A model generated the notes under the pieces. That model saw only the letters and a program-made list of their open reading frames with translations, did no database searches and had not been told where the DNA came from. Positions 34,104-34,935 of a DNA stretch of 64,000 nt are shown in pieces (within the stretch, counting starts at the first letter, position 1; each line of letters begins with the position of its first letter). The stretch lies in the IMG/VR virus record IMGVR_UViG_3300017911_001697, positions 9,918 through 73,917 of that record; one strand, given 5' to 3'. A program made the translations under genes and the position numbers. Source of the DNA: a virus (Duplodnaviria > Caudoviricetes).

Positions 34104-34529
34104 ATGAGTTATTGGATATATCAGGGAAAACAAATTGACGAACTACCCGAAGGATGCGAAGCATTCGTATACTTAATAACGAACAAAAAGAACGGCAAGA
34201 AGTATGTGGGTAAAAAATTAGCAAAATTTAAAACCACAAAGCCACCACTTAAAGGTAAAAAAAGAAAACGCAAAGGCACAAAAGAAAGTGACTGGAGAGA
34301 TTATTGGGGGAGCTCAGACAACCTCAAGGAAGATGTAGAAAAGTACGGGGAAAAAAGTTTTATCCGAGAAATACTACATCTTTGCCCTAGTAGAGGAGTT
34401 GCTAGTTACTTAGAAGCAAAAGAACAATTTGATCGCAAAGTTCTCTTGACAGACAATTATTATAATGGTATAATCAATGTAAGAATTGGCGGTTCAAAAA
34501 TTTTACGAGAATCACTAACAAAGAAATAA
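34104..34529 (+). CDS. Stand-alone GIY-YIG nuclease domain protein (141 aa)
   Basis: FVYLITN.KNGKKYVG motif, later YLEAKEQ and YYN; no separate C-terminal DNA-binding domain; Lys/Arg-rich insertion. Confidence 0.8.
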   Translation: MSYWIYQGKQIDELPEGCEAFVYLITNKKNGKKYVGKKLAKFKTTKPPLKGKKRKRKGTKESDWRDYWGSSDNLKEDVEKYGEKSFIREILHLCPSRGVASYLEAKEQFDRKVLLTDNYYNGIINVRIGGSKILRESLTKK

Positions 34530-34542
34530 TTATAATTGCATT

Positions 34543-34589
34543 AAGGCACATCAAGGCATAACAAGGCATACCTGGCTTAACAAGGCACA
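34543..34589 (+). repeat. Phased short direct repeats AAGGCA(C/T)A
   Basis: Copies at 34543, 34553, 34563 and 34582, plus a degenerate copy near 34572. Confidence 0.8.
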
Positions 34590-34935
34590 CACATAGGACC
34601 ATACACCACCCCACCGAGGCAAATAATATCGGTTTCCTTGAGGCTCCGTATCCACGGCGTCAGATTCTGGAATGTATGGCGGTACATGAGATACAAACAA
34701 ACGACAACAGTATTGAACGATTCAGGCTCTGAGAAAAAGCAACCTGAGAGTTAGTATAACTAAACTCGTCAAGGTTATACTGGCTTCCGTGGGACACCAG
34801 TGACGGTAGTGTATGAGGGGATAAGGCCCACCACCTCTTAACAGCACCCGAGATTGAGATGGCGATGCTCATCATGATGACATCCATTTTTTTATTCACC
34901 CGGCAACGGGTGAATTATGGCTCAACTTTCATGAT
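34590..34935 (+). ncRNA. Candidate large structured RNA (or structured origin DNA)
   Basis: Many nested hairpins, including ATTCACCCG-GCAA-CGGGTGAAT (GNRA loop); no credible ORF; looks more GC-rich than the flanks. Confidence 0.5.

Follow-up and report, generated by a model that had tools for sequence, protein, structure and literature searches.

The stretch of DNA analysed here, referred to as the window, comprises 64,000 nucleotides (nt), positions 9,918 to 73,917 of the 73.9-kb IMG/VR record IMGVR_UViG_3300017911_001697, and is part of the genome of an uncultured marine T4-like myophage. The locus of interest consists of a small gene for a GIY-YIG nuclease followed by a large non-coding element. 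The gene order is gp55-like, gp47 (Mre11-like), gp46 (Rad50-like), the GIY-YIG open reading frame (ORF), a gap of 599 nt and a cytochrome-c-like gene. The gap (34530-35128) is the largest internal stretch of the window without an ORF of 80 or more amino acids (aa). A preliminary description of the locus had called it the largest gap outright; this is correct for the interior, but the cut first 1404 nt of the window form a longer ORF-free stretch, the only one. Comparative sequence analysis indicates that the gap codes for an independent RNA of ~450 nt on the plus strand (34590-35036), with three domains and a pseudoknot. The structured non-coding element proposed earlier was thus correctly recognized as such and shows covariation, but its end had been set too short, at 34935, and the element reaches ~35036. 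The features of the locus are as follows.

32288..34057, plus strand: gp46, a Rad50-like recombination nuclease subunit (Pfam AAA_23 and SMC_N), the conserved neighbour 5' of the GIY-YIG gene.
34101..34529, plus strand: gene for a stand-alone SegE/I-TevI-type GIY-YIG nuclease (PF19835, PHROG 447, invariant residues, AlphaFold model, PDB entry 1LN0).
34446..34474, plus strand: sigma-70-type promoter consensus TTGACA-17-TATAAT, TG-extended, with 12/12 matches, within the last 80 nt of the GIY-YIG ORF.
34543..34593, plus strand: CA-rich leader with 4–5 AAGGCA(C/T)A repeats at a phase of 9–10 nt, between the GIY-YIG stop codon and the RNA core.
34591..34685, plus strand: 5' domain of the RNA, with a conserved ACATAGG, closing helix H1 (34599-34605/34673-34679) and three inner hairpins (helices 1–4).
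34690..34793, plus strand: central module of the RNA (helices 5–7), with an architecture like that of Rfam family RF01712.
34765..34858, plus strand: pseudoknot (helix 8), in which loop 34765-34768 (CTCG) of a 13-base-pair (bp) hairpin pairs with 34855-34858 (TGAG).
34804..34855, plus strand: third domain, stacked helices CGG/CCG, GTGT/GCAC and GAGGGG/CCTCTT (helices 9–10, 100% paired).
34872..34881, plus strand: twin box 1, TCATGATGAC, one of the only two box copies in the window.
34897..34912, plus strand: GNRA-capped hairpin CACCCG-GCAA-CGGGTG (helix 11), between the twin boxes and after a U-run (34887-34893).
34929..34938, plus strand: twin box 2, TCATGATAAC, 57 nt after box 1.
34944..35036, plus strand: 3' tail of the RNA, with a palindrome, a helix, direct repeats and a terminal hairpin.

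The block right after the GIY-YIG gene was retrieved from many related contigs with Blastn and nhmmer. Among these relatives 215 of 243 insertions and deletions in the gap are not multiples of three, the substitutions are of the RNA type and the ORFs are only short, which together rule out a coding reading. The in-frame AUG...AUA of the two boxes (57 nt, or 19 codons) was likewise rejected as a sign of coding, as it is lost in relatives. The secondary structure was curated by hand on 25 non-redundant relatives and comprises 75 base pairs in 12 helices. Across the alignment 93.1% of the cells are paired, and 37 of the 75 pairs have changed on both sides. The mean number of such pairs in shuffled controls is 20.6, with 37 attained in 0 of 500 shuffles; when the partners are slid by 1–3 columns, 4–10 such pairs and 33–45% pairing are found. 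RNAalifold gives 27–35 doubly changed pairs, with many G-U pairs on the plus strand. The minus strand was tried as a candidate and folds more stably alone (z of -3.6 against -1.7), but the RNA is assigned to the plus strand because the G-U pairs fit only that strand.

In the 5' domain, pair 59/86 is C-G in 15 sequences and G-C in 10, and pair 31/49 is C-G in 16 and U-A in 9. The central module is made up of a hairpin (34690-34715), a stem (34722-34726/34743-34747), the 13-bp hairpin (34748-34786) and TCCGTG, with 4/5 and 10/13 compensatory pairs. The loop of its stem, CTCTGAGAAAAAGCAAC (34727-34743), is unchanged in 49 sequences. The pseudoknot is 100% paired in the 25 relatives, and three of its four pairs are compensatory. 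Pairs 251/273, 254/270 and 255/269 of the third domain are compensatory in 8–11 of the 25 sequences. The GNRA hairpin is found in the compensatory variants CACCTG/CAGGTG, CTCCTT/AAGGAG, GCCCGG/CGGGC and GAACC/GGTTC. A long-range CACC/GGTG pairing returned by RNAalifold was rejected, as it clashes with this covarying hairpin and fails in GGAG variants.

The 3' tail contains a small palindrome (34944-34957) and a helix, ATATCTTG/CAAGATA (34965-34973/35011-35018), and ends in the hairpin GACAC-GAAG-GTGTC (35018-35036) with a weak T tail. Compensation is seen at columns 518-525/564-571 and 572-577/581-586, with GACAC/GTGTC exchanged for GGTCC/GGACC in some alignments. Inside the helix are purine-rich direct repeats (34978-35008; e.g. 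GAGTGAAAC/GAGAGAAC), with ACGAGT or TGCATGA present twice in relatives. These form a second set of duplicated words, the sequence of which drifts between lineages. At the other end of the RNA, the AAGGCA(C/T)A repeat matches the window 16 times where 6.3 matches would be expected, and four of the 16 are clustered in the leader. Clade-A relatives have 2–5 copies, and distant clades that keep the RNA have none. The sigma-70-type consensus farther upstream is kept perfectly in only 3–4 of 122 distinct relatives. It is thus a feature of a sub-clade, in which it marks a possible start of the RNA transcript, and it was rejected as a family-wide feature because it is not conserved.

The phage RNA is new to Rfam. 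No family in Rfam 15 matches the locus (E<=1), the whole window (gathering score) or the central module alone (E<=10); the sole hit, a small nucleolar RNA at 17.7 bits, was dismissed as chance. ARAGORN finds no tRNA or transfer-messenger RNA (tmRNA), and no Rfam tmRNA family matches. A two-piece tmRNA was considered, prompted by the Melnitz phages (see below), which are said to encode one, and was rejected. The Intron_gpI model has no match and gp46 is complete, so that there is no group I intron with a split host gene. Among known RNAs, GOLLD, ROOL and OLE are large ornate RNAs of bacteria and phages that form RNA-only homo-oligomers (PMC12286853). Like them, the phage RNA is a large, multi-domain, pseudoknotted non-coding RNA of phages or mobile elements with a GNRA loop. 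However, its layout differs, and their models have no match in the window (gathering score) or around the locus (E<=1).

The two boxes flank the U-run and the GNRA hairpin and mark both ends of an imperfect tandem duplication ~25 nt in length. Among 59 non-redundant members they change together: the word differs between RNAs and is identical within each. The words observed are TCATGAT, ACATGAT, TCGAGAT, TCGTGAT, ACTTGAT, AGATAATG, AGATGATG, GAATAAT, GGATGATG, AGATAAAG and CCATGAT. No internal segment complementary to the boxes was found in any lineage. Palindromic pairing of one box with the other fits CATG, CGTG and CGAG but fails for ACATGAT, AGATAATG and GAATAAT, and was rejected. Because the co-variation is by identity and not by complementarity, it suggests one external partner that would be bound twice. 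We know of no counterpart of these identity-co-varying boxes in GOLLD, ROOL or OLE.

The RNA is not confined to phages. The motif of the invariant loop also occurs in assemblies of Polynucleobacter, Oxalobacteraceae, Burkholderiaceae and Dechloromonas, in gene-free gaps of 0.9–1.5 kb. The bacterial RNA loci are as follows.

L232, L256 and L259: Polynucleobacter, contig of a metagenome-assembled genome (MAG).
L204, L226 and L240: Oxalobacteraceae.
L205: Burkholderiaceae.
L222: Dechloromonas.

These gaps align with one another over >450 nt, and the RNAs in them, ~450–500 nt long, are homologous to the phage RNA. Phage and bacterial RNAs have in common the 5' ACATAGG and the central hairpin flanked by ACGAU and UUCCGUUGA. 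The layout of box, GNRA hairpin and box is also present in the bacterial RNAs, as is the tail motif GAACGAAGTGAATG, which the phage RNA has in common with that of Polynucleobacter. A pseudoknot is found in the same place with other sequences, TTCATG/CATGAA in Polynucleobacter and GTGG/CCAC in Oxalobacteraceae. A model built on the phage central module (R1) matches the bacterial RNAs at full length, including a second Polynucleobacter copy without the exact motif; the automatic consensus of R1 kept only 6 base pairs, and R1 was used only as a sensitive sequence model. One Polynucleobacter contig carries two near-identical copies of the RNA in inverted orientation, 44 kb apart.

The bacterial homologues lie in tRNA-flanked islands. 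A tyrosine integrase gene adjoins the RNA in L232, L240 and L226 (the last beside tRNA-Met), and a serine resolvase gene in L205. The distribution is sporadic: in a sample of 141 genomes from the order to which the Polynucleobacter genome belongs, one has the RNA, the centre genome itself. Because the bacterial copies adjoin integrase or resolvase genes and are sporadic, the RNA appears to be a cargo of mobile elements in general, with a family that extends over many uncultured marine myophages and betaproteobacterial integrative islands. A phage-type RNA was also found on a contig from a Legionellales MAG (L225, 7274-7497, minus strand; nhmmer E 4.7e-29), which is probably a phage contig binned into that MAG.

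Through the bacterial copies the RNA can be compared with Methylobacterium-1 (RF01712), an orphan small RNA motif described in Methylobacterium and in metagenomes from the sea (Weinberg et al. 2010, PMC2864571). The Polynucleobacter RNA scores 49.9 bits on RF01712 (cut-off 40); the model has no match in the window, its record (E up to 10) or 9 related phage loci. The central module of the phage RNA and RF01712 seem to have the same order of hairpin, ACGA(U) linker, short stem with a large loop, long hairpin and (U/A)CCGU. This apparent agreement of architecture and of the linkers ACGAU and UCCGU is by inspection, and the only bridge between the two is the near-sequence-only model R1. The Polynucleobacter RNA that scores on RF01712 has the invariant loop, pseudoknot, 5' ACATAGG and 3' tail of the phage RNA. 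However, RF01712 is 103 nt long against ~450 nt, and the phage RNA adds 5' and 3' domains, the pseudoknot and the twin boxes.

The GIY-YIG ORF begins at a TTG (34101; 142 aa) or an ATG (34104; 141 aa) and ends at 34529 on the plus strand. Pfam family PF19835 (SegE_GIY-YIG) matches the protein with an E-value of 1.2e-34 and 119.6 bits (cut-off 25). The match spans residues 5–125 and positions 1–123 of the 123 in the profile, and no second Pfam domain was found, which bears out the earlier view of a 141-aa nuclease consisting of the catalytic domain only. PHROG 447, a family of ~148 aa that is widespread in cyanophages, matches with an E-value of 2e-37; in sources it is mis-named 'NAD synthetase'. 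Twenty-two homologues can be aligned end to end, with F21-V22-Y23, Y34-V-G36 (Y-x-G), E104 and N121 invariant. The putative catalytic roles of the conserved acidic and Asn residues are assigned by analogy only. Beyond the catalytic domain there are 17 residues, and all 22 homologues stop at the same place. A separate C-terminal DNA-binding domain with a linker is not present in the protein or in these homologues, and the family is 134–148 aa long throughout. The premise of the preliminary description that a GIY-YIG enzyme needs such an appended domain is not general; T4 endonuclease II, a single-domain GIY-YIG enzyme, is a counterexample.

The AlphaFold model of the protein has a pLDDT (predicted local distance difference test) of 87 and a pTM (predicted template modelling score) of 0.80. 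The basic arm seen earlier in the sequence, KPPLKGKKRKRKGTK, is present in the model as the tip of a beta-hairpin. The best PDB fold in a Foldseek search is the I-TevI catalytic domain (1LN0) with a probability of 0.90 and a weak E-value of 0.25; no match reaches E<=0.001, and the assignment to I-TevI is by rank and probability only. A PDB sequence search with the protein gave no match. The closest isolate is Methylophilales phage Melnitz.

In most related loci gp46 is the 5' neighbour of the GIY-YIG gene. The gene downstream of the RNA differs among relatives. In the window it is a plus-strand gene (35129-36400) with a signal-peptide-like start, a CxxCH haem motif and weak Pfam matches to cytochrome c, which is missing from this position in most relatives, so that the downstream neighbour of the RNA is variable.

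The relationship between nuclease and RNA was examined over loci that were collected with an 18-nt motif of the invariant loop, without reference to the protein. At the 105 RNA loci with a judgeable upstream side, the GIY-YIG gene immediately precedes the RNA in the same orientation in 81 (77%), with ~40–100 nt between its stop codon and the start of the RNA. It is inverted in 9, more than 700 nt away in 2 and not found within 1.5 kb in 13. A check suggested in the preliminary description, whether homologues of the nuclease carry a conserved covarying structure downstream, is thus usually answered in the affirmative, both by these 81 loci and by the 37 of 75 covarying pairs. At two loci the slot upstream of the RNA is occupied by a different nuclease in place of GIY-YIG, once on each strand.

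L095, 3298-3867, plus strand: PD-(D/E)XK nuclease (PF24608, 'phage putative endonuclease'), close to the 5' side of the RNA.
L142, 2272-2862, minus strand: PD-(D/E)XK nuclease (PF24608, 'phage putative endonuclease'), close to the 5' side of the RNA.

At a further locus (L099, 4297-5756) the GIY-YIG gene and the RNA are separated by an auxiliary gene that is GMP reductase/IMPDH-like and by an ORF of 142 aa that belongs to no known family; a distance of 1.5 kb between nuclease gene and RNA also occurs. In five RNA-bearing records (23–87 kb) no GIY-YIG homologue was found. At L100, L101, L103, L185 and L199 the central module of the RNA follows an ORF of 370–380 aa without a Pfam or PHROG match, and there is no GIY-YIG gene nearby.

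The nuclease is also found without the RNA. At 15 of 170 GIY-bearing loci the gene is just behind the gene for the small subunit of ribonucleotide reductase (RNR), and there is no RNA. These copies are 69–77% identical, and the GIY-YIG gene of Melnitz is also in this context. Neither the complete Melnitz genome (141.5 kb) nor any of five RNR-context records has a match to model R1. A tree of 130 distinct proteins, from a quick maximum-likelihood search on 140 columns, has the RNR-context copies in several groups nested among RNA-context copies. At least two switches of context are forced by starred (well-supported) branches, and six is the most parsimonious count. Closely related nucleases thus occur with and without the RNA, and the RNA occurs with other nucleases or with none. 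Because each occurs without the other, an obligate ribonucleoprotein is disfavoured. The pattern fits mobile endonuclease genes that have repeatedly settled beside a highly conserved sequence.

Based on these observations, we give somewhat better than an even chance to the view that the locus holds two independent genes that are usually neighbours, a mobile nuclease and a trans-acting folded RNA. The nuclease would be a free-standing homing-type enzyme of the I-TevI/SegE type, consisting of the catalytic domain and a basic hairpin, and in marine T4-like phages would land at two preferred spots, the junction of gp46 and the RNA gene or the site behind the gene for the RNR small subunit. It resembles T4 SegA-G in its SegE_GIY-YIG domain, its I-TevI-like fold and its insertion between conserved genes, and homing-type genes in having two contexts (gp46/RNA and RNR small subunit) and both orientations. 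It differs from SegA-G and I-TevI in that it lacks a C-terminal DNA-binding domain and is unusually well conserved. T4 SegB itself sits among tRNA genes. For the RNA, action in trans in its folded form is most likely, be it as a scaffold, a decoy or an RNA-only assembly, and the two identical boxes on either side of the GNRA hairpin would each contact one copy of the same external partner. Selfish nuclease genes may find in the highly conserved RNA gene a stable site for landing or recognition, and we propose that the tight adjacency of the two genes arises because of this. The analysis shows how the RNA and the nuclease fold, which strand encodes the RNA, how its family is distributed and that the two genes are independent; homing, action in trans and what the boxes do are inferred.

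Several points weigh against two independent genes. The GIY-YIG gene is directly upstream of the RNA in 77% of loci, which would suit a functional or co-transcribed pair as well, and at L011, L024, L087 and L107 the two invert as one unit relative to gp46. An empty site, with gp46 followed directly by the RNA, was not seen among close relatives. In distant relatives the nuclease is 70–79% identical, against 52–57% for gp46 and gp47; a purely selfish gene is not usually so well conserved, and a domesticated function could be the reason. In addition, the locus counts may include redundant loci and the contigs are mostly fragments, and the bacterial loci were first retrieved by the 18-nt motif, with R1 almost a sequence-only model.

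The close spacing on one strand at 81 of 105 loci and the joint inversions are also what would be expected if nuclease and RNA formed one mobile cassette or a cis unit, which we consider doubtful, although no other alternative survives as well. The nuclease might mobilize the RNA gene by co-conversion, the RNA might be a structured 3' part of the nuclease transcript (as a stabilizer, a terminator or a means of translational control), or the RNA gene might hold the cleavage or immunity site of the nuclease. The T4 mobA gene with the gene 60 insert and segB in the tRNA cluster are precedents for such nuclease-linked units, and the promoter-like site inside the 3' end of the GIY-YIG gene in the window also agrees with one. 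However, that 12/12 site is not conserved, the RNA is found without the GIY-YIG gene, with an inverted one and in bacteria that have none, and the nuclease moves into the RNR context without the RNA.

The high conservation of the nuclease, above that of gp46 and gp47, leads to a second, unlikely alternative, in which it is a domesticated phage enzyme whose task resembles that of T4 endonuclease II (denA), such as the nicking of host DNA, and the RNA is an unrelated neighbour. Both are single-domain GIY-YIG proteins, here of ~140 aa, the PHROG 447 family is widespread in cyanophages, and the site directly behind the RNR small-subunit gene is the place of denA in T4. In contrast, Pfam places the protein in the SegE homing family, I-TevI and not endonuclease II is the closest fold, and no PDB sequence matches. 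The switches of context, the inversions and the replacement by a PD-(D/E)XK nuclease are also typical of mobile endonuclease genes.

The preliminary description suggested, as a speculation, an RNA that serves the nuclease as partner or guide, giving it target recognition in the manner of IscB/omegaRNA or TnpB/reRNA. The strong co-occurrence of the two genes, a protein with a basic arm but no DNA-binding domain, and RNA segments that differ from phage to phage (twin boxes, 5' repeats) are in keeping with this. In OMEGA systems (IscB with omegaRNA, formerly HEARO, and TnpB with reRNA), too, a compact nuclease gene and a large structured RNA are found in a mobile context. However, the proposal is not supported and is very unlikely. 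GIY-YIG copies 69–77% identical occur without the RNA in the RNR context, including the complete Melnitz genome, with at least two switches of context. The RNA in turn occurs without the nuclease, with an inverted copy, with PD-(D/E)XK or beside bacterial recombinases, so that it accompanies unrelated enzymes or none. The variability that had been sought as a guide-like segment lies in the internal, duplicated boxes of 7–10 nt and in the repeat leader, with no terminal guide beside an element end and no transposon ends at the locus. The phage system further differs from OMEGA in its nuclease fold, in a nuclease a third of the size and in an RNA that is not obligatory, and the HEARO and omegaRNA models have no match at the locus or in the window. 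We know of no RNA-guided nuclease near 141 aa; all known ones are far larger.

A related and highly improbable possibility is that DNA-mobility enzymes have the twin-box RNA as a programmable partner. The boxes would pair with a short sequence common to two nucleic-acid molecules and join these, and the enzyme encoded just upstream would act on them. In phages this enzyme would be a GIY-YIG or PD-(D/E)XK nuclease, in bacterial islands a tyrosine integrase or a serine resolvase.

Least probable of all is an origin element, whose transcript would form an R-loop or primer, with the AAGGCA repeats as iterons and a nick by the nuclease leading to recombination-dependent replication with gp46/47; the repeats are helically phased, the locus adjoins gp46/47 and a strong promoter-like site lies upstream, but the repeat number varies and distant clades that keep the RNA lack the repeats, conservation tracks RNA base-pairing (G-U pairs, pseudoknot) and not DNA motifs, the family is also found in bacterial islands and rearranged phage contexts, and no shift in GC skew is seen at the locus.

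Large, intricately folded RNAs of unassigned job are rare, and earlier ones led to new biology; HEARO, for example, proved to be the guide RNA of IscB. The idea of a GIY-YIG 'mini-CRISPR' is attractive but unsupported for the present RNA. The co-variation of its boxes by identity points instead to an external partner and provides a handle for experiments. The RNA is abundant in uncultured marine T4-like phages (>100 contigs), and the link to betaproteobacterial islands and to an orphan Rfam motif suggests a mobile-element RNA family and not the curiosity of a single phage. Conserved RNA genes of this kind may be landing pads for several families of selfish nucleases.

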